Source: an uncultured Alphaproteobacteria bacterium (GTDB taxonomy: Bacteria; Pseudomonadota; Alphaproteobacteria; Rhodobacterales; Rhodobacteraceae). Taken from it: a stretch of 64,000 nt of DNA. The notes below the pieces were generated by a model, which was not told the DNA's origin, did not search any database, and saw only the letters and a program-made list of their open reading frames with translations. Position numbers and translations under genes: made by a program. Below are positions 13,071 through 64,000 of this stretch, in pieces; within the stretch, counting starts at the first letter, position 1; each line of letters opens with the position of its first letter. The stretch is taken from assembly GCA_963710185.1 (NCBI GenBank), contig CAVPZE010000001.1, positions 94,831-158,830 of the forward strand, written 5' to 3'.

Positions 13071-14752
13071 GAGGTTACCTGTTCTCTGAGGATGGACGCG
13101 GTGAGCGACAACATCAGGTAGATGCCTGCAAAGACCAGAAATGCCAAGATCGTGTTTTCAAATTTGCGTGGATAGGTCGCCTCTTGCGGGGCGACGGGCC
13201 GCACAGCGACGGTCAGATATCGCACCTGACGGCTGGCCTCGTTGCGAGCGGCTTCCATGCCGGTCAGGGCCAGTTGCAGGTTGGTATCGGCGGCCACCAG
13301 ATCGGCTTGGGCCAGTTGCATGGTAACGGCTTTTTTCGCCAGCGAATTGTCGCCCACCACGGCTGAATTAAGCTTGTCGCGCAGCTTGTCCAACTGTTCA
13401 TTCAAGCGCCGCACATCGCCTTGCGCGCCGTCCACCTTGGCACTGTTCGGGCGGGTGTTGTCGAGCAGGGCGGCAAGTTCTAGCTCTTTTTCGATCAGCA
13501 AACCTTCGTAGGTGGTGATCTGGGCGCGGATGGCGATGATTTCGGCTTCGGGGTCAACACCGTTTTCGACCTGCATGGTGATCAAGGCTTCTTGTGCCTC
13601 GCGGCGCTTGAGCTGGGCGGTTTCCAGCCCCGATACGGCGTCCGCCATCCCGTCTTCACGCTTTTGCTGTGACAACCCGTTGATGCGCTCTTCGGCATAT
13701 TTCAGCAGGCTTTCGGAAAAGTTGGCCGAGATCGTCGGATCGGCGGCGATCACTTCCATACGGATCACACCTTCGGTCGGATCATAGCCGATTTTGACGT
13801 TCTTTTTATAGGATTTGAATGCTTCCTCGTTGGTGGGGTCCGACGTCAGGCGCTGGATCGGGTCAATGTTCGGGTTCGAGAAATGCGCTTTGAACCCTTC
13901 ATCCTCGTCCAGACGCAACATCGCATCTTTGGACTGCAAATAGGCTTGGGTTGCGATGCTGTCGGCGCTGTTGGCAAATTGCGTGGGCAACAACCCGCCA
14001 AAGGGGCTGGTTGATGACCCTTCGCTCTGGATGATCAGGAACTGGCTGTTTGTGGCATACATCGGTGTCGCCATATTGTAGAAATAATAGCCCGCAACGA
14101 ACGTCGGCAACATCACGAAAAACGCCAGCCGCACCATGAGCAGGCCCATCTTGCGACGGCGACGGCGCGAGATATCGCGTTGAATGTCGCCTATTTCGCG
14201 CTTGCGGCGCTCGGACGGGCTAATCTCGGTCGAGGGAAGGGTGTTGCCACGTGCAGGAACGGTTTGCGGTAATTGCACACGTCCGATTGCGGAACCTGCA
14301 CCACCGGCTTGCGCGGGCAGGCCCGCCATCGCGTCGCCGGGGCCGCCGTCGCGCTGTTCGCCGCCCGCTTGGGGGACCACAAGTTCAAGCATGTTCGAGC
14401 GCTGGAAAGGATCAATACCGTTGGTGCGCAACAAACGTACCGCATCAAAATCCGAGGTCGGAGCGAGATCGTGTTTTTGCGCGACACGCCGTGCCATGCG
14501 CAACTGCCGCCCCGTCAGACCCTCGCGGCGGATTGCATCCATGTCGGTTTCACCCGCGACCTCGGCGGCTGACGATACCTGACCGGCGCGCAAATCCTCG
14601 TCGTCTCTTGACGAGGGCACAGGGCGCAGGCCGGGCGGTGGCGTTGCAGCCACGTAAGCGGCATCAGCGCTGCCTGTGGCAGTGCTGGTGGATGATGAGG
14701 TGGGCGTGCTCCGCTTGATGCGGAACTTTCTAGCCTTGGGTTTCGTAATCAT
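13067..14752 (-). CDS. kpsE: KpsE-like capsule polysaccharide export inner-membrane protein with a long N-terminal extension
   Basis: Start set at ATG 14752 (MITKPKARKF), which overlaps the kpsT 3' end by 23 nt. The stop overlaps the kdsA start (ATGA). The C-terminal ~330 aa have the KpsE/Wzz-like layout: TM, long coiled region, C-terminal TM LAFLVFAGIYLMLSL. Confidence 0.75.
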   Translation of the reverse strand: MITKPKARKFRIKRSTPTSSSTSTATGSADAAYVAATPPPGLRPVPSSRDDEDLRAGQVSSAAEVAGETDMDAIRREGLTGRQLRMARRVAQKHDLAPTSDFDAVRLLRTNGIDPFQRSNMLELVVPQAGGEQRDGGPGDAMAGLPAQAGGAGSAIGRVQLPQTVPARGNTLPSTEISPSERRKREIGDIQRDISRRRRRKMGLLMVRLAFFVMLPTFVAGYYFYNMATPMYATNSQFLIIQSEGSSTSPFGGLLPTQFANSADSIATQAYLQSKDAMLRLDEDEGFKAHFSNPNIDPIQRLTSDPTNEEAFKSYKKNVKIGYDPTEGVIRMEVIAADPTISANFSESLLKYAEERINGLSQQKREDGMADAVSGLETAQLKRREAQEALITMQVENGVDPEAEIIAIRAQITTYEGLLIEKELELAALLDNTRPNSAKVDGAQGDVRRLNEQLDKLRDKLNSAVVGDNSLAKKAVTMQLAQADLVAADTNLQLALTGMEAARNEASRQVRYLTVAVRPVAPQEATYPRKFENTILAFLVFAGIYLMLSLTASILREQVTS

Positions 14753-15389
14753 AGAGCTGTTTCGCTTCTTCCAAGGTGTCAAACATATGCAATTGCCCGT
14801 CCAGCAGAACCGCTGCCGAGCGCGCAAATTTTTCGAGGGTTTGTGGCTGGTGTGACACAATAATAATCGTTGTTGTCCGCAGCCGTTCTTGCAGGATTTC
14901 ACCTGCCTTGCGGTTGAATTCAACGTCTGTGGTGGCGGGCATACCCTCGTCAATCAGGTACATGTCGAAATCAAGCGCCAGCATCAGCGCGAATGAAAAC
15001 CGCGCGCGCATGCCCGAAGAATAGGTGCCAAGCGGCTGGTCGAAATATTCGCCCAAGCCACAGAGCCAGCGACAGAAGCTTTCGACATAGTCAGGGTCAA
15101 GGCCGTAAAGCCGGGCGATGTAGCGCGCGTTTTCCATTGCAGATACTTTGCCGACAACACCGCCCATAAACCCCAGCGGGAACGAGATGTTGCAGCCGCG
15201 CCGGATCTCGCCATCATCCGGTTTTTCCAAACCCGCCATCATGTTGATCAACGTGGTTTTGCCTGTGCCGTTCGGGGCCAGAATACCCAGGGAATTGCCC
15301 AGTTCCACACGGAAAGAAACCCGGTCAAGAATGATCTTGTGCTGGCTTCCGGTCCAGAAGGACTTGGATACATTTTCAAATTCCAGCAT
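14730..15389 (-). CDS. kpsT: Capsule polysaccharide export ABC transporter, ATP-binding protein
   Basis: 219 aa with Walker A GILAPNGTGKTT, signature YSSGMRARF and Walker B MYLIDE. SD ggagcagg lies upstream. Confidence 0.88.
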   Translation of the reverse strand: MLEFENVSKSFWTGSQHKIILDRVSFRVELGNSLGILAPNGTGKTTLINMMAGLEKPDDGEIRRGCNISFPLGFMGGVVGKVSAMENARYIARLYGLDPDYVESFCRWLCGLGEYFDQPLGTYSSGMRARFSFALMLALDFDMYLIDEGMPATTDVEFNRKAGEILQERLRTTTIIIVSHQPQTLEKFARSAAVLLDGQLHMFDTLEEAKQLYDYETQG

Positions 15390-15626
15390 TCCCTGCTCCG
15401 GTTGGTGCTGTGAGGTGGTGTTCGCGCCCCATTATCAGAGGTATATTAACGGCTTATCCTCTGAATTTGACCATATTATGTCCTATATCGAAACAAATGT
15501 ACAATGTGTTGGATGCCGTATTGGCGGTATCCAATGCATTTGTGATGGGATGGGGTGGCGGGTCCGTTGAAATGAAAAACCAACGCCGGAGCGCTGGATT
15601 TTCGTCTTAAATGCGGGTGGCGGATA

Positions 15627-16643
15627 TTACGCGACCGCTTGCCACAACACGCCCGCAATGATGGCACCTGTTACCGCAAACCCCAGATAGGCCGCAAAGA
15701 CACGCGGTTTGACCAATGCCCAGACCGCGATGGCGGCGGGAATACAGCTGACACCCCCCGCGATCACGAACGACATGGCAGCCCCTTGGGTCATGCCCTG
15801 TGCCAGCAATGCATCTACCAAAGGCACGGCGGCGTAGCCATTCAGATAGGCTGGTGCGCCGATCAAGGCACCCATCAGGATCGGCTTGATACCCTCGCCG
15901 CCAAGAAGGCCCGCGATCATTTCCGCAGGGACATATTGCAACATCAAGGCTTCGATCACATAGGCTAAGGTCAGCCATTTCGTCAGGAATAGCGCATTTT
16001 CAAACGCCGTGCTGCGAAACACCTCGCGGCGCGGTGCTTGGGTCCAGAATTTCCAGACAGGTTGTCCCGAGAACGGTTTTTTCACGCCGCAGCATCCGCT
16101 GATTGCGGGCCGTTCCCGCAACGGGTCGGCAAACAGCGGTGTGTTGGCGGCAAGCATCACGCCAAAGCCGCCGAACATGCCAAGCCCGATGGCGGCCAGC
16201 GTCTTGGCCAGGGCAAAATCCCATCTCAGCGTGCCGGACGTGATGGCGAACATGGCCGGATCCATCAGCGGGGAGGCGAGCCAGAACGCCATGACGGCCC
16301 CCAAGGGTGCGCCAACAGCAAGCAAGGCGGCGATGAAGGGAATGACCTCGCAAGAGCAGAACGGCGACAGACCGCCCAGCAACGCAGCCATGACCACCAT
16401 ACGCGCGGGATTGCCCTCGAACGCGCGGGCCAGCAAGGTCTCTGCACCGCTTGCCTTGAGATAGGCGACCGCGAGCACGGCAAACGCGATGAACGGTGCG
16501 GTGCCTGCCAAGGCCTTTGCGACGAAAATCACGGTGGGCATGAACTGCGGCAAGTCTAAAAAGGCAATTGCCAGCAGAATAAAGAATGTCGCTCCCCAAG
16601 CACCGCCAAATCTAAGAGTCCGATTCAAAATGAGCTGAGGCAT
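15627..16643 (-). CDS. ArsP/DUF318-type permease; native 5' end displaced by an IS, present start codon supplied by the IS terminal repeat
   Basis: 338-aa polytopic membrane ORF with CxC-type motifs (SPFCSCEVIP). The first 10 codons (MPQLILNRTL) lie inside the IS inverted repeat. The native start ATG is at 17589 (see findings). Confidence 0.7.
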   Translation of the reverse strand: MPQLILNRTLRFGGAWGATFFILLAIAFLDLPQFMPTVIFVAKALAGTAPFIAFAVLAVAYLKASGAETLLARAFEGNPARMVVMAALLGGLSPFCSCEVIPFIAALLAVGAPLGAVMAFWLASPLMDPAMFAITSGTLRWDFALAKTLAAIGLGMFGGFGVMLAANTPLFADPLRERPAISGCCGVKKPFSGQPVWKFWTQAPRREVFRSTAFENALFLTKWLTLAYVIEALMLQYVPAEMIAGLLGGEGIKPILMGALIGAPAYLNGYAAVPLVDALLAQGMTQGAAMSFVIAGGVSCIPAAIAVWALVKPRVFAAYLGFAVTGAIIAGVLWQAVA

Positions 16644-58298: not shown

Positions 58299-58373
58299 GC
58301 CTGGGTAGCTCAGGGGTAGAGCAGTGGATTGAAAATCCTCGTGTCGGTGGTTCGATTCCGCCCCCGGGCACCA
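58299..58373 (+). tRNA. tRNA-Phe (GAA)
   Basis: Acceptor gcctggg/cccgggc (one G-U pair), D arm gctcaggggtagagc, anticodon stem-loop gtggattGAAaatcc(t)c, T arm ggtggttcgattccgcc, and encoded CCA. Confidence 0.9.
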
Positions 58374-58515: not shown

Positions 58516-58815
58516 CTAAATCGGCTGTTCGAGCCCGACTTTCTCCGTGTCTATCATGTCAAACTGTTTCGTCCAATCCGCTTGCCGCCGTTCGACCGCC
58601 TCGATGTAGGCGTTCAACTCCGGGACGATGAAGCGCGTGCTACAATTTTCATTGAATGGATTGCCAAATTTATGCTTGCGCGGAAACCTTGGGTTTTCGC
58701 GGTGCCACCGGTGAATGGTTGCTCGGGAAACCTCGAAGAGCCGCATAAGATCGCTGATGGAGCAGTAGCGGCGGTGCGCGAGCCATTTTGGAAGGGAGGC
58801 GTTCGTGTCTGACAT
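58516..58815 (-). CDS. AlpA-family phage/island regulatory protein (excisionase-like HTH)
   Basis: Start at ATG 58815. YCSISDLMRLFEVSRATIHRWHRENPRFPRKHKFG is the AlpA/MerR-type HTH pattern. It is the first gene after tRNA-Phe. Confidence 0.72.
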   Translation of the reverse strand: MSDTNASLPKWLAHRRYCSISDLMRLFEVSRATIHRWHRENPRFPRKHKFGNPFNENCSTRFIVPELNAYIEAVERRQADWTKQFDMIDTEKVGLEQPI

Positions 58816-59218
58816 GGGTCTATCCTTTGGTTGTTTCTTGTTCCGCGCCGCCTCTCTTTCTAGATCAGGCAAATTTCTTGGTCCGGGACACAGCAGCACT
58901 CCATTATTGTAGGGGAGTAACTTCTCAGGATCACCCAATGCATAGGTGAATTAGGGGCGATCACATGCGAATTCTGTGGACGGGAGGTCGAAATGTGGGC
59001 CCTGAACCCCTTATGACGTCGGTTGGTATCGGTCTTGGACGCATGGCAACGTCTCGCTTTCAAAAATCCGGATTTTTTCTCTCGGTCCCTGCAATTTTGC
59101 CAAGGGGCGGCTCCTTTGTGTGGCTATGATGATCGTCTTGCAGCCCGGCCTGTTGGGGCGGCCTGTTCGTGCGTCACCTGCGGTGTCGCGTCTGGTGGCG
59201 CAGGTGCGCAGGATAGAG

Positions 59219-59249
59219 GCGGGGGCCGACGCCCCCGCTGCTTCTTTTA
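59219..59249 (+). terminator. Intrinsic-terminator-like hairpin with no assigned plus-strand gene
   Basis: gcgggggc-cgac-gcccccgc followed by tgcttctttta. The orientation (U-rich tail) fits the plus strand only. Confidence 0.4.
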
Positions 59250-59325: not shown

Positions 59326-61251
59326 TTAAGGCGGAATGTTTTCGAGGCTCAGGTCAGCAAGATTGGACGTCACGCCGTCTAGAAGTCGCGCGATCGTCTG
59401 CCTCTTGATGGTCCTGTGTTCAACCAGATGGCGTGCCAGAAGTTCTACATAGTGGCGGTTCTGCCGGAGGATTTTACCAGCTCGGGTTTCGGCGCGGGTG
59501 ATGCGCTGAAGGACGCGGTCACGGATGGCAGGGACCGCCAGATGGGCCGAGTCGGAGCCCTGATGCCAGATCGGCCCCTGTATGCCCAAGCCGTAGGTGG
59601 TCTCGATCGCGATGGCCCTGCCGGTTGCGAGCGCGAGGTCGGAATATGCGGGACCGCCTGCGCCTGCCGAGATTTCACCGAGGACCAGCCGCTCTGCCGC
59701 CCTTCCCGCCATCGAGTATGCGATCTCGTTCTCGATATCCGACAGTCGGCATTCATTCTGATAGATGCGGCAGGCGACATTGCCTCCGTCGCGGGTGATC
59801 ATGATCGAGCTGAGTTCACCGATCTTCAGCGCCTTTGCAACAACGGCATGTCCGGCTTCGTGGATGGCAACCCGCCACGTGCGGTCCCGATTTTCGTCAT
59901 CCGGGCGGATGTTCAACTTCGCCTCCAGCATCCCGACCGACAGCATTTTTCGCGCGTGCCGGGCATCAGACCGCGCGGCACGGATCGCCGCGTCAATGTC
60001 CGCCGCGGTCTTGCCAGCCGCCCGACGTGACAGGCTGCGCAGATCGTGTTCCGCAATGTCACTGGACAAATGGAAGCGCAGGATTTCCAGGATCGCGTCG
60101 GCATCGGGCAAGTGAACCTCGATTTTGAGGTCCATTCGGCCGGGTCGGATCGCCGCAGGGTCAATTCTGTCGAAGTGGTTGCAGGTTGCCACAACGATCA
60201 CACCCGGCTCATGGCTTATCCGGTCAAGTTCGGTGAGGACCGTGGTGATCACCTGGGTGCGATAATTCGATGCATGGCGTTCCGGATCAATGCGCGAACC
60301 GACAGCGTCAGATTCGTCGATGATCAAAACACATGGTGACTTTCGTCGAGCCTCCGCAAAGGTGGCAGTCAGTTCGCGCAGCATGTCTCCCAAATGGCCG
60401 GCCGACTGCCACTGCCCGAAGTTGCCTGTCACCAGATTGAAACCGGCGCTGTTTGCGATTGCCTTTGCGAGCCAGGATTTGCCGGTCCCGGGAGCACCAT
60501 AAAGCAACATAGAATGGCTGATTTCATGCCATTCCGCCGCGCCTGCTTTCCACGCTTGCAAGTCAGCTACGATGCGCCGTGCGGCGTTGAGAGCCGCACT
60601 TTCCCCGTTCATGTCCTCGAGGCGCGGGCCGGCAACATTGACATTGCGATATGCGATTTTCCCCAACCGGTCGACGGCGTCATGAAGCATCGGCCCGCGC
60701 AGTGCGGCGCAGATGTCAACGGTGCTCAAGTCACTCAGCTCCGCCTCAGATGGCAAGGCCGCGCGCAGATTTCCAGCTTCCGAAACCTGCTCGGCGAGAT
60801 GTCCGGCCCTAAGGAATATCATCAGGATATCATGCGTTATGGGCGCCAGATCGAACGGCTCAGGCACAGCGATCCGCAGCGCCTGCGGCAACACGATGCC
60901 GTCGGTTTGCAGGATCATGAGCGGCTCAGTTCCGTCCATGTGCTCGTTGACGGAGCGCGTGAAACGGCTCTGGGTGGTCTTTGCCACCTGACCTTCGATC
61001 AAGTCGGGATCTATGATCGTCCAGCGTGCTGGAAAAACATCCTTAATCGTCTCGCGGACCGTTGCAAGATCGTCAACGGGGACCCCCCTGATGACCGTGA
61101 TTGCACCCCTGTGAAATGCCGCGCTCTCGACTTCCGGGGTGGCAAGTGTGGCCGCAATCCGAATGACCGCCAGCAGTTTGCGGCCAGGAACCCTCCGGTT
61201 CAGAAGTTCCGCAGGCTCCGCGAAACGCTCGTCTGGTGCCATACCTTCCAT
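59326..61251 (-). CDS. Soluble FtsH-like AAA+ ATPase / M41 zinc metalloprotease with uncharacterised N-terminal region
   Basis: 641 aa. Walker A GAPGTGKS (nt 60475-60498), Walker B VLIIDESD, sensor/Arg finger AAIRPGRMD, protease motif HEAGH (nt 59848-59862) and a downstream GGPAYSDLALAT helix as in FtsH. No hydrophobic N-terminal helices. The frame stays open upstream to the IS3 edge. Confidence 0.8.
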   Translation of the reverse strand: MEGMAPDERFAEPAELLNRRVPGRKLLAVIRIAATLATPEVESAAFHRGAITVIRGVPVDDLATVRETIKDVFPARWTIIDPDLIEGQVAKTTQSRFTRSVNEHMDGTEPLMILQTDGIVLPQALRIAVPEPFDLAPITHDILMIFLRAGHLAEQVSEAGNLRAALPSEAELSDLSTVDICAALRGPMLHDAVDRLGKIAYRNVNVAGPRLEDMNGESAALNAARRIVADLQAWKAGAAEWHEISHSMLLYGAPGTGKSWLAKAIANSAGFNLVTGNFGQWQSAGHLGDMLRELTATFAEARRKSPCVLIIDESDAVGSRIDPERHASNYRTQVITTVLTELDRISHEPGVIVVATCNHFDRIDPAAIRPGRMDLKIEVHLPDADAILEILRFHLSSDIAEHDLRSLSRRAAGKTAADIDAAIRAARSDARHARKMLSVGMLEAKLNIRPDDENRDRTWRVAIHEAGHAVVAKALKIGELSSIMITRDGGNVACRIYQNECRLSDIENEIAYSMAGRAAERLVLGEISAGAGGPAYSDLALATGRAIAIETTYGLGIQGPIWHQGSDSAHLAVPAIRDRVLQRITRAETRAGKILRQNRHYVELLARHLVEHRTIKRQTIARLLDGVTSNLADLSLENIPP

Positions 61252-61374
61252 TTTTTGAAATAGAGTTTCGAGTTCGCTTGCCTCCTCGTCTTCGTCGAGA
61301 ACATGAACGCCATGGCTTTTGTGCAGGCGGTTGACTGAACCGCCCCGGGTTTGCCGGAGACCAATTAGTCCGTG

Positions 61375-62655
61375 TTACGCGACCATATCGAGTGTGTTCA
61401 AGGTTGCATAGAAGGCCTCCTCTGCTTCTGCGGGTGGTATGTTGCCAATGGGCTCAAGCAGGCGGCGGTTGTTGAACCAATCGACCCATTTGAGGGTTTC
61501 CAGCTCGACCTCCTCCATTGTTTTCCATGAACTGCGCCGCCGGATAACCTCGGTTTTGTAAAGGCCGTTGATGGTCTCGGCCAAGGCGTTGTCCATTGCC
61601 CGGCAATGCATGTTTACATGCATGAGAGGGATAGGCGTCCCCGACGCTGCCAACGGATGGCTCAATGCCCGCCTTTGCCAAGCGCTCGGTGTAGCGAATA
61701 GACACGTATTGCCCACCTCGGTCGCTATGGTGAACCAAACCAGCCTGATAGGCAGGGCGGCGGGCATAAAGCGCCTGTTCCAAAGCATCCAAGACAAAAT
61801 CTGTCTTGGCAGATCGCGACGCTTTCCAGCCGACGATGCGGTTGGCGAAGGTGTCGATCACGAAGGCGACGTAAACGAAGCCCTGCCATGTTGAGACATA
61901 TGTGAAGTCGCTGACCCACAGCATATTTGGCGCTGGTGCTCGGAACTTGCGGTTCACCTTATCGCGTGGACATGGCACTGACGTGTCGGGGATCGTTGTT
62001 TTCATGGCCTTTCCTCGAACGATTCCCCGTAAACCCATGCCTTTCATGAGGCGTGCCACGGTGCAGCGCGCGGTAGCCTCACCCTCGCGGCACAACTGCC
62101 GCCAGGCTTTGCGAACACCATAAACCTTCCAATTGTCATCCCAGACCTTCTGGATTTCAGGCCGTAAAGCCGCATCCCGCTGCTGGCGTGCCGAGGCTCT
62201 GGCCGGATCGGCACGCACTGCAAGGCAAGCATAGTAAGTGGATGGGGCAATCGGCAGCACCCTGCAGATCGACTCGACCCCATGAGCCACGCGATGATCG
62301 TCAATAAAGCCGATCATGGCCTGAACGGGCGGTCGAGTTCCGCCTGAGCAAAATAAGCTGACGCCTTGCGCAATATCTCATTTGCCTGTCGGAGCTGACG
62401 CACTTCCCGCTCCAGATCCCTGATCCGTTCGCGTTCAGCACTGGTCGCACCATCCCGTGCCCCGCTGTCCTTTTCCGCCTGCCGAACCCAGACCCTTAAT
62501 GTCTCCGGGATGCAGCCAATCCTCGGGGCAATCGCAGCGACCGCCGCAGATTGCGTTTCATAGGAGCCTTGATGCTCCAGCACCATGCGAACGGCACGCG
62601 CCCGCATCTCAGGTGAATAACGATTTGATGTCTTACTCTTTTCCATAGCCCTCAT
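61375..62655 (-). pseudogene. IS3 transposase orfA/orfB, with orfB disrupted
   Basis: orfA 62314-62655 (HTH, leucine-zipper tail). orfB 61454-62317 carries DDE residues (…WVSDFTY…HSDRGGQY…) but shifts frame after SVGSVGDAY. The proper continuation DNALAETINGLYKTEV… is in the frame of ORF 61375-61797. Confidence 0.88.
61594..61630. repeat. 37-bp palindromic insertion inside IS3 orfB
   Basis: cattgcccggcaatgcatgtttacatgcatgagaggg lies between codons TAT and GAC of the conserved GD.YDNA motif. It contains cattgcc-c-ggcaatg and atgcatgt-tt-acatgcat palindromes. Confidence 0.7.
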
Positions 62656-62698
62656 CCTTAGTCAGGTTGAAGGTCTCCAGCAAACCCGGGGCGGTTCA

Positions 62699-63552
62699 GT
62701 ATCCGCAACATCCAGCTGCGGCTGCTGCCCGACGATGAGCTACTGCCGCATGAGGTGTCGAAATACGACCAAAAGGTTGTGCTGGAAGCCCTGCACAACT
62801 GCATCGCCCATCAGGATTATACCCATAACCAGCGGATCATCGTGACCGAGAAGCCTGACCGACTGGTGTTTGAGAACGCAGGTCAGTTCTTTGAAGGTGC
62901 CCCCGAGGATTATGTGCGTGGCGACAAGACGCCGCGCGATTATCGCAACCCGTATCTGGTGCAAGCCATGGTCGAGATGGGCATGATCGACCAGATGGGT
63001 TGCGGCATTCAGCGGATGTATGAGACGCAGCGGGAACGCTACCTGCCGATGCCCGATTACGAGATGTCTGGCGATGCAGTGCTGATGACCATCTATGGCG
63101 GTGTCGTCGATCCGGCCTATACTCGGGTGCTGATGGAGAACGGTGGCTTGCAGCTGACCGATGTGCTGGCGCTGGACCGCGCGCAGAAAGGGCTGGAGGT
63201 GCCGGATGGCGCCATTCAGACGCTCAGACGCAAAGGGCTGATTGAAGGGCGAAAGCCACGGCTCCGTGTTTCGGCAGCGGTTGCTGCGGCTTCCTCCAAG
63301 CAAGCGGAATACATCAAAACCCGCGCTTTCGATGATCAGCATTATGCCGATCTGGTGCTGCAATATCTAAGTAAGTTCGGTAGTGCCTCAAGAAAGGAAA
63401 TCGATAAGCTGTTGTGGGATAAGTTGAGCGATGCGCTGGATGATGGACAGAAGAAAAGCAAAATTGGTAATGTTATCAGCAAGCTACGCGTGGATGGGGT
63501 GATCTTTAATGCTGCATCGCGGACTGCACCGGAATGGAAGAAATGCGAATGA
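62699..63552 (+). pseudogene. AlbA_2/HATPase_c_4-type ATP-binding putative regulator, 5'-truncated by the IS3
   Basis: The frame is open from 62701, directly at the IS end. EALHNCIAHQDY…RNPYLVQAMVEMGMIDQMGCGIQRMYE matches the HATPase_c_4 core (ALvNAvaHRDY…RNP.ia..f…G.ie..GsGI.ri). The N-terminal AlbA_2 part is absent. Confidence 0.65.
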
Positions 63553-63617
63553 AGCGGGAACAGCCTAAGAAAGAAATTACGAAAGAAGTGCTGGATTTAA
63601 GAAAGAAACTGCCATGA
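63549..63617 (+). CDS. 22-codon Lys/Glu-rich mini-ORF bridging the truncated gene and res (hypothetical)
   Basis: The ATG overlaps the upstream stop (gaATGAag) and the stop overlaps the res ATG (ccATGAag). Peptide: MKREQPKKEITKEVLDLRKKLP. Confidence 0.3.
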   Translation: MKREQPKKEITKEVLDLRKKLP

Positions 63618-64000
63618 AGATCAAGTTCAAGTCGCAGCTCTACCAGACGCAGGCGGTGGATGCGGTGGTCGATTGCTTTATCGGGCAGCCACGACAGGAT
63701 CCGCTTAAATACACGGTCGACCCCGGCGCGGATGCGCAGTCGCGTCTGGAAGTCGAAGGGTTCGGGAACGGTGCGATCAGGCTGACCGATGATGGAATTC
63801 TGGAGAACATCACTAAGGTCCAGCGACGCGCGATGTTGCCCGTCTCGGACAGCCTGACGTATTTTGCGGACGATCGAGGTATTAGAAAGCCAGCCAGCTA
63901 TAGGCCTGGAGCGGGAATCAATCTTGATGTCGAGATGGAGACGGGCACAGGCAAAACCTATGTCTACATCAAGACGATGTTCGAGATGCACAAGCGATAT
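63614..64000 (+). CDS. res: Type III restriction endonuclease Res subunit (helicase-like), N-terminal 129 codons; continues past the window
   Basis: MKIKFKSQLYQTQAVDAVVDCFIGQP… and helicase motif I LDVEMETGTGKTYVYIKTMFEMHKRY. There is no stop up to position 64000. Confidence 0.75.
   Translation, partial: MKIKFKSQLYQTQAVDAVVDCFIGQPRQDPLKYTVDPGADAQSRLEVEGFGNGAIRLTDDGILENITKVQRRAMLPVSDSLTYFADDRGIRKPASYRPGAGINLDVEMETGTGKTYVYIKTMFEMHKRY

Follow-up and report, generated by a model that had tools for sequence, protein, structure and literature searches.

An IS3-truncated FtsH-like AAA+/M41 protease gene in a tRNA-Phe island and the conserved cassette of its intact relatives

A protease gene cut at an IS3 end

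We analyzed a stretch of 64,000 nucleotides (nt) (here, the window) from an uncultured Rhodobacteraceae bacterium (contig CAVPZE010000001.1, positions 94,831 to 158,830), in which a gene for an FtsH-like AAA+/M41 metalloprotease lies on the minus strand of a tRNA-Phe island. An initial annotation, made from the letters alone, had described it as an orphan and as a working candidate for a novel function, with the caveat that its 5' end and a partner gene might have been lost. The open reading frame (ORF) at positions 59326 to 61251 encodes 641 amino acids (aa) in uninterrupted codons, and its first usable start is the ATG at 61251. Homology to full-length relatives extends over 669 codons (59326 to 61335, minus strand) and ends exactly at the inverted repeat of an insertion sequence (IS) of the IS3 family. 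Comparison with these relatives leaves little doubt that the gene was 5' truncated at the IS3 end, and the copy in the window is most likely an inactive remnant.

The domain assignment of the initial annotation held up, since Pfam and regular expressions placed every AAA+ and M41 motif where it had been read. The classical AAA+ ATPase module (59932 to 60510, minus strand; Pfam AAA at aa 248 to 380, E value of 1.7e-29) contains Walker A (GAPGTGKS, 252 to 259) and Walker B (VLIIDESD, 308 to 315) motifs, a pore-loop tryptophan within a pore-loop-like WQSAGH (281 to 286), sensor 1 (TCN, 356 to 358), arginine fingers, the motif DPAAIRPGRMD (364 to 374), and a lid. It is followed by the M41 zinc metalloprotease module (59386 to 59874, minus strand), where Peptidase_M41 matched aa 460 to 622 with an E value of 1e-12, covering positions 10 to 190 of the 191 in the model. 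Here, HEAGH (464 to 468) and SDL (537 to 539, within GGPAYSDL at 532 to 539) are invariant in the alignment with relatives, Asp 538 being the likely third ligand. Among 114 relatives of at least 600 aa, the ATPase and protease motifs, all kept in the window copy, were found in 111 to 114; HExGH was present in 112 and a looser SDL third-ligand pattern in 90. The protein also appears to be soluble, as proposed, with a maximum 19-residue Kyte-Doolittle mean of 1.31, which indicates no membrane helix, and no Pfam match to the extracellular domain of FtsH (FtsH_ext). Its similarity to a Sulfitobacter albidus protein reached 70% identity over 99% of its length.

Regarding the 5' end, the relatives are almost all 686 to 710 aa long, about 46 aa longer than the product starting at ATG 61251. 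Of this difference, 28 codons (up to 61335) are still present in frame in the window and 18 have been deleted, so that the window holds the 3' 97% of the gene. The 28 codons (VNRLHKSHGV...LFQK), already noted as open up to the IS3 boundary in the initial annotation, aligned with LIDRLRxRHGV...ELDILFQK of the relatives, which carry in addition a conserved leader, MPxxTxxxPxWxxYADxLI, N-terminal to the extended frame of the window. In a BLASTP comparison with 111 relatives of at least 650 aa, 71 covered part of the 28 upstream codons, and in 55 the alignment began no later than residue 5 of the extended frame; 42 of the latter group had exactly 18 more residues. At the DNA level, homology to the relatives begins precisely at GTCAAC (61335), and the preceding bases belong to the IS. 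In common, the relatives have GGAGGG as the Shine-Dalgarno sequence and ATG-CCC as the start; in the window, IS sequence stands in place of both.

No ATG, GTG, or TTG was found in the stretch between the IS and 61251, no Shine-Dalgarno-like sequence precedes the ATG at 61251 (as had been suspected), and no promoter-like site for the remnant was detected. The methionine at 61251 corresponds to Phe or Leu in the relatives, and ATG 61251 was therefore rejected as the native start. As a side observation on start sites, the deposited start of the S. albidus homologue (CP073581.1, locus L001, 9935 to 10001; TTG, 670 aa) is probably some 18 codons short, the conserved GGAGGG-ATG-CCC being found upstream of it as in other relatives.

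The IS3-family element (61336 to 62698, minus strand) is bounded by 29-nt inverted repeats (arms at 61334 to 61362 and 62672 to 62700, 97% complementary) and carries orfA and a broken orfB, both co-oriented with the protease remnant. Its transposase domains (HTH_Tnp_1, rve, and rve_3) are distributed between two frames (61454 to 62317 and 61375 to 61797). The break in orfB is a 37-nt insertion with a palindromic core at 61594 to 61630, between the codons for ...GDAY and DNALAETING (minus strand, ccctctcatgcatgtaaacatgcattgccgggcaatg); the alignment with ISDsh1-like relatives stops at this point. The orfB stop codon (TAA, 61375 to 61377) is in frame with the remnant, 13 codons (39 nt) before the junction, and a start codon is lacking in between.

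On the far side of the IS, a HATPase_c_4 gene (62699 to 63552, plus strand; Pfam E value of 4.6e-15) is likewise 5' truncated, its frame being open to the IS boundary, and the IS has no target-site duplication (flanks GAC versus GTA). Given that both genes flanking the IS are truncated, the flanks were not originally contiguous and a deletion or rearrangement must have occurred. Thus, by the sequence of its flanks, the IS3 marks a deletion or rearrangement joint rather than a simple insertion, and the associated deletion took the first 18 codons of the protease gene, its ribosome-binding site, the promoter region, and the genes upstream. At best, read-through from the IS might yield a protein from ATG 61251 that would lack the 46-residue conserved leader.

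The remaining features place the remnant in a known type of island. The integration site is a tRNA-Phe(GAA) gene (58299 to 58373, plus strand; ARAGORN), and the same tRNA and chromosomal flank (YacG, RNase G, Maf, InfA, CN-hydrolase, and Sir2) were found in the window and in the islands of S. albidus and S. faviae, in agreement with the location originally assigned. Between tRNA and protease gene lies an AlpA-like helix-turn-helix gene of the excisionase/regulator class (58516 to 58815, minus strand). Its Pfam helix-turn-helix matches were weak (E value of 0.1), so that by Pfam the earlier AlpA call is a weak one; the tblastn local match to S. albidus p108 (58815 to 58549, 79% identity), however, is to a gene in the same position of a related island. 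A gene of this kind occupied the same position in six other scanned loci and in S. faviae (L083), and by this comparison the AlpA-like gene is a conserved downstream neighbor of the FtsH-like gene in tRNA-Phe islands. The shared flank and AlpA-like gene indicate that the window island is a decayed member of this tRNA-Phe island type.

Two statements about the surroundings did not stand. The GC content of the protease gene (0.59 to 0.60) is like that of the whole window, not AT shifted as had been claimed; the only lower values are those at 58 to 59 kb (0.533) and 63 to 64 kb (0.539). No restriction genes were found in the part of the island within the window; what lies beyond the IS is the HATPase_c_4 gene, for which PADLOC gave weak matches to models associated with SIR2/pAgo (PNTD1-PNTD2 architectures, E value of 7e-7), and a 161-aa ORF (63506 to 63991) without a family match. 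Neither had homologues in the related islands searched. Finally, a GC-rich hairpin with a 9-bp stem (59218 to 59239), about 90 nt past the protease stop, was scored by the terminator scan as terminator-like on the plus strand.

The intact cassette and its distribution

We scanned one genome per species for relatives of the protease, which gave 215 loci, 80 of which were kept; these were nearly all from Rhodobacterales, with Martelella as the exception. Partner genes were sought in the 70 loci for which 2.5 kb or more was available upstream, using the neighbors of the S. albidus gene as queries in tblastn and in iterated hidden Markov model searches. A 175-aa protein (p175) was found in 58 of the 70 loci, a 310-aa protein (p310) in 52, and a divergently encoded 63-aa ribbon-helix-helix (RHH) protein (p63) in 42. 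The gene order was constant, with the RHH gene on the opposite strand, followed by p175, p310, and the protease as the last gene of the operon, and it matched the gene calls in public assemblies and plasmid records. Intact copies are found, for example, in S. albidus CP073581.1 (L001, 7953 to 12013) and S. faviae CP177228.1 (L083, 8004 to 12076). All three partners were absent from the whole 64-kb window (tblastn). Therefore, the term "orphan" fits only the damaged copy in the window, and the family, as its gene neighborhoods indicate, is normally part of a conserved cassette. The conserved upstream partner that the initial annotation had suggested looking for exists, and its warning of a 5' truncation and of a lost partner proved well founded; its candidate for a working novel function turned out to be a truncated remnant, given that homologues are consistently about 46 aa longer at the N terminus.

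Among the partners, p310 is the most informative in sequence. Six invariant cysteine pairs (CxxC) form three zinc-ribbon or treble-clef units, and the C-terminal domain has an invariant Tyr, Lys-Gly-Tyr/Phe-Ser, Arg, and Glu. Eighteen of 24 members matched either T5orf172 (14, weakly) or MUG113 (4), both of which we take to belong to the GIY-YIG superfamily, and PGAP names the Antarctobacter homologue "GIY-YIG nuclease family protein." Profile searches of p310 against the PDB returned only zinc-finger noise. On its sequence features, we regard p310 as nuclease-like, with a GIY-YIG/T5orf172-like domain and three zinc ribbons. For p175 and p63, nothing specific was found in Pfam, PADLOC, or PDB profile searches. 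The structural model of p175 (predicted local distance difference test [pLDDT] of 84) is a five-helix bundle with a disordered tail. In the different members, the last ca. 25 residues are acidic and disordered with nonpolar ends (...TFDF, ...WAAF, ...LAPAA, and ...AAPGV), reminiscent, by analogy, of the C-terminal degrons of FtsH and ClpXP substrates.

Rhodobacterales islands that are integrative and often mobilizable carried the cassette at the end nearer the tRNA; it also occurred on some plasmids. In the islands, its distance from a tRNA gene (Phe, Met beside an rRNA operon, Ser, or Arg) was 0.9 to 4.5 kb, and the 3' end of this tRNA gene points toward the cassette. In the tRNA-Phe islands (S. 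albidus, S. faviae, and others), the AlpA-like gene sits between the protease gene and the tRNA, while in other islands, a small ORF and then a large serine recombinase gene follow the protease gene. Where 3 kb or more could be read downstream (52 loci), 19 loci had the serine recombinase and 6 the AlpA-like gene on that side; the other 27 had neither, and the genes found there were diverse, with type I, type ISP, and MmeI restriction-modification (RM) systems among them. Relaxase- and Mob_Pre-family relaxases were found upstream of the cassette in some loci. The large neighbors within 6 kb (48, nonredundant) include type IIG and type I RM proteins, GajA/GajB (Gabija), HerA, DpdF, and an HKD-Snf2 protein. 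Together with the serine recombinases, these neighbors show a real mobile and defense-rich context, of the kind that the initial annotation had suggested looking for.

We also approached the association from the side of the recombinase. Two of four recombinase homologues (62% and 54% identity) had the whole cassette directly upstream; of the other two, one had an IS at the position of the cassette and one lay in a different element. The family was present in 57 plasmid records, uniformly annotated as "AAA family ATPase," and the cassette was found on repABC plasmids and with two unrelated integration modules. A phage collection and IMG/VR contained no family member, only generic AAA matches, and by these collections the family is not phage borne. 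No convincing direct repeats marking island ends were detected in the three loci searched, and no integrase was seen within the 22 kb read of the tRNA-Phe islands.

Overall, the family is patchy in its distribution, with several copies per genome, on islands and plasmids. Two to five protease copies were found in several genomes: a Rhodobacterales metagenome-assembled genome (L018 to L020 and L024), Albirhodobacter (L009, L050, and L054), and Pacificibacter (L011 and L013), in which the copies are ca. 42 kb apart on one contig. At many loci, the contig breaks off shortly after the protease gene, in keeping with a site beside rRNA operons or repeats. In Paracoccus aminovorans (L085), the large serine recombinase gene (14359 to 16077 region) has its 3' end (16044) overlapping a tRNA-Met gene (16001 to 16077), an arrangement to be expected of an element that inserts into the tRNA gene and rebuilds its end; the island seems to be only ca. 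12 kb long and comprises DUF927, RHH, p178, p389, protease, p305, and recombinase genes. The tRNA-Phe islands of S. albidus (L001, 5909 to 7931) and S. faviae (L083, 4462 to 7980) share, beyond the cassette, a GerE/LuxR-type regulator, a 197-aa protein with a signal-peptide-like N terminus, and a 192-aa protein with hydrophobic segments, and some tRNA-Phe islands code for a 457-aa protein without a family match. A distant relative (29% identity, 566 aa) on plasmid pRapFH23a of Rhizobium acidisoli (L137, 59450 to 77009) lacks p175 and p310; its neighbors are a CHAT protein, an S8 peptidase and ATP-binding protein pair (Iet-like), a metallophosphoesterase, a KwaB-like protein, and a small GIY-YIG nuclease.

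Damage by ISs is not restricted to the window. In Albirhodobacter sp. R86504 (L086, 8954 to 9904), the p310 homologue is split into ORFs of 219 and 77 aa and the RHH gene has IS fragments immediately upstream; an Azospirillum plasmid copy (L138) has an IS630 upstream; and next to a close recombinase homologue (L140), an IS occupies the place of the cassette. Together, these three loci suggest that IS-driven decay of the cassette is common.

Architecture compared with known systems

The N-terminal region of the remnant (60520 to 61335, minus strand) begins with what is left of the conserved, flexible leader and continues as an alpha/beta-plus-helical domain without a P-loop motif. As had been reported for the shorter ORF, we recognized nothing known in it: the 272 N-terminal residues of the extended frame, in which the ~240-aa region is lengthened by the 28 upstream codons, had no Pfam match. 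In a phmmer search of 1.84 billion representatives, the N-terminal domain alone matched 118 clusters, most of them ca. 650 to 800 aa long, which is consistent with the same architecture throughout; at the sequence level, the domain looks family specific. An AlphaFold2 model built on 61 sequences (pLDDT of 85) had a poorly ordered leader (residues 1 to 45 of the extended frame), an alpha/beta core, and then a helical bundle. In Foldseek, all top 50 PDB matches were P-loop ATPases, nearly all AAA+, and the same was true of every named match among the top 50 in BFVD; the matches included TRIP13, spastin, VCP D1, proteasomal Rpt subunits, RFC, and FtsH/Yme1. The structural comparison that had been recommended thus returned a resemblance to AAA+ proteins only, but the scores were weak (E values of 1e-3 to 7e-2 and template modeling [TM] scores of ca. 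0.3), and hhalign detected no similarity between the profile of the N-terminal domain and the AAA profile of the family itself. Because of this negative, the degenerate-AAA+ reading comes from structure only. With the model as a guide, we lean toward considering this region a degenerate second AAA+-like tier, somewhat more than even in probability.

The resemblance recalls the tandem AAA+ proteins (D1-D2 of p97/Cdc48/VAT and FtsHi/Ycf2), in that the modeled N-terminal domain resembles AAA+ domains, including those of VCP D1 and FtsHi/Ycf2, and precedes, without a P-loop of its own, the active AAA+ domain. It differs in being faint and invisible to profile comparison, and unlike p97, the family has no N-terminal double-psi barrel and is continued by an M41 protease.

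The closest solved proteins spanning the AAA+ and protease modules were FtsH/HflB of T. thermophilus (2DHR/4EIW; E value of ca. 3e-34) and yeast YME1 (6AZ0; E value of 2.3e-33), while the AAA+ module by itself was best related to the ATPase domains of VAT/p97/Cdc48 and to FtsH. With FtsH and YME1, the family shares the order of AAA+ and then M41, the Walker A and B motifs, the aromatic pore loop, the sensor-1 Asn, the RxGRxD second region of homology, and HEXXH with a downstream Asp in xDL, and it is presumably a hexameric unfoldase-protease as well. However, it has neither transmembrane helices nor a periplasmic domain and carries instead a family-specific N-terminal region of ca. 290 aa; its pore loop reads W-Q-A/S-A-G versus M-F-V-G in FtsH; and its gene is borne by mobile elements inside a four-gene cassette. 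The top full-length family model was FtsH_fam, and the canonical cut-offs were not reached (TIGR01241, 164 versus 600 bits; PRK10733, 96 versus 1,008 bits). To our knowledge, FtsH is known almost only as a membrane-anchored housekeeping or regulatory protease, and the family represents an AAA+ M41 protease in a new architecture and a new genetic setting.

These values also bear on a housekeeping role in protein quality control as an FtsH paralogue. The domain order and the best full-length match are what such a paralogue would show, but the score far below the cut-off, the absence of a membrane anchor, the patchy, multicopy distribution on islands and plasmids, and the truncation of the gene in the window make this explanation scarcely credible. 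We rejected it on scores, missing anchor, and distribution.

Among defense systems, PADLOC-DB v2 gave only similarity of the AAA domain to IetA and TRIP13, so that, as first stated, no described defense family fits, and it had no model matching p63, p175, or p310. The best of these matches was to the IetA models (E value of 2e-25). IetAS, a pair of AAA+ protein (IetA) and subtilisin-like protease (IetS), is similar in combining a classical-clade, FtsH-related AAA+ with a protease in a mobile or defense context. The differences are that the match to IetA involves the AAA domain only, with 90.3 bits versus the 510 of the NCBIfam cut-off (IteA_antiphage), and that the protease is of the M41 type and fused, not a separate S8 enzyme, with p175 and the GIY-YIG-like protein as partners. 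No S8 protease partner (IetS) was found in the window or next to the close relatives. Given the score under the cut-off and the missing IetS, membership in IetA was rejected. Literature searches returned no description of the protease family or the cassette and no functional work; the lone "FtsH-like" mention, in a defensome paper, refers to the IetA domain.

Proteolytic switches are a familiar part of mobile elements, examples being ImmA/ImmR of the element ICEBs1 and the host proteases FtsH and Lon acting on lambda CII and Xis. By analogy, a protease encoded beside regulator, excisionase, or recombinase genes could set the state of the element. ImmA is, however, small, ATP independent, and from another metalloprotease family, and the cassette studied here adds a nuclease-like protein.

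Possible functions of the cassette

The protease is encoded along with three other proteins, one nuclease-like, one small and helical, and one a regulator of the repressor type, which makes regulated proteolysis of one of them the most economical function of the cassette. Overall, the explanation that on balance we favor, with slightly better than even confidence, is that the window gene is a truncated remnant of such a regulated-proteolysis cassette. In the intact locus, the protease would probably be hexameric, its M41 chamber and active AAA+ ring being topped by a degenerate N-terminal tier of the AAA+-like kind, and it would act as the switch of an element-borne module, in which the unfolding and degradation of a cassette protein might either free the nuclease-like p310 or hold it back. 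As a substrate, p175 would be the best candidate, the tail of which resembles the nonpolar C-terminal degrons of FtsH substrates. The outcome could be an addiction or abortive type of conflict or the maintenance of the element.

How far this can be specified is a matter of degree. We hold it tentatively, as plausible, that the intact cassette serves in conflict or maintenance and that p310 is controlled there by proteolysis. A more specific proposal, in which the cassette is an undescribed conflict system (anti-phage, anti-plasmid, or addiction) of Rhodobacterales islands and the window holds a decayed copy, is possible but doubtful; the AAA+ M41 protease would then release or destroy a nuclease effector through ATP-dependent degradation of a cassette-encoded inhibitor. 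The conflict reading is favored by the portability of the cassette (two integration modules and plasmids), by its conflict-typical composition, and by the defense-rich surroundings of distant relatives, which adjoin Iet-like, Kiwa-like, and CHAT genes. Several observations weigh against it. The defense neighbors may be mere island cargo; the cassette remains constant while the cargo varies and is co-inherited with one clade of serine recombinases (54 to 100% identity), a conservation pattern for which a backbone or life-cycle role is at least as good an explanation as defense. Neither the literature nor PADLOC offered a precedent for the function of the cassette or for its three partner proteins. 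Foldseek of the p175 model returned generic helical bundles only, the likeness of its tail to a degron is a resemblance only, and the proposed second tier has the low scores and the negative profile comparison described above. As for the window itself, the 641 codons of the remnant are unbroken, and its loss of function is something that we infer.

Given this conservation pattern, the cassette could alternatively regulate the life cycle of the island, the protease degrading the RHH repressor, the AlpA-like or small directionality factor, or the recombinase and so setting excision, integration, or transfer; the window copy would be dead in this case too. The cassette is always proximal to the attachment site and co-directional with the AlpA-like gene or with the small ORF and large serine recombinase gene, in one case with only 6 bp to the next gene, and a divergent RHH regulator is typical of such switches. 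Two of the four recombinase homologues, chosen independently, carried it directly upstream, and it was conserved against a changing cargo. On the other hand, about half of the loci (27 of 52) had neither recombinase nor AlpA-like gene adjoining it, it occurs with two unrelated integration modules and on plasmids, a zinc-ribbon/GIY-YIG-like partner is unexpected in a purely regulatory switch, and one close recombinase homologue was without the cassette, though an IS sits there. We consider a life-cycle role, the main rival of the conflict reading, to have some chance of being correct, but a rather low one.

For the window ORF, the alternative to a remnant is a working stand-alone soluble AAA+ protease in a new role, as in the main reading of the initial annotation, expressed by read-through transcription from the IS3 and started at ATG 61251. 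The unbroken frame with every catalytic motif intact, the co-oriented IS genes with the orfB stop only 39 nt before the junction, and the retention of all globular domains in the model are compatible with it. Nevertheless, the Shine-Dalgarno sequence and start codon of the relatives have been deleted, nothing resembling the former, or a promoter, was found for 61251, and the methionine there has Phe or Leu as its counterpart in relatives, so that it does not qualify as a conserved internal start. The conserved 46-residue leader would be lost or untranslated, all three cassette partners are gone from the window, and the IS3 itself is defective. For these reasons, we judge a functional stand-alone protease to be improbable.

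The interpretation that we retain, a remnant of a regulated-proteolysis cassette, has consequences at two levels. The "orphan" of the window is a remnant made by an IS, a cautionary case and unsuited to cloning as it stands. Its family, on the contrary, belongs to a compact and conserved cassette with a membrane-free FtsH-like protease core, found in hundreds of islands and plasmids of marine and soil alphaproteobacteria, and this cassette is experimentally tractable because intact loci are directly clonable. A soluble FtsH-like protease that mobile elements encode together with a nuclease-like protein would put the FtsH machine to a new use, be it in defense, addiction, or the control of island excision.

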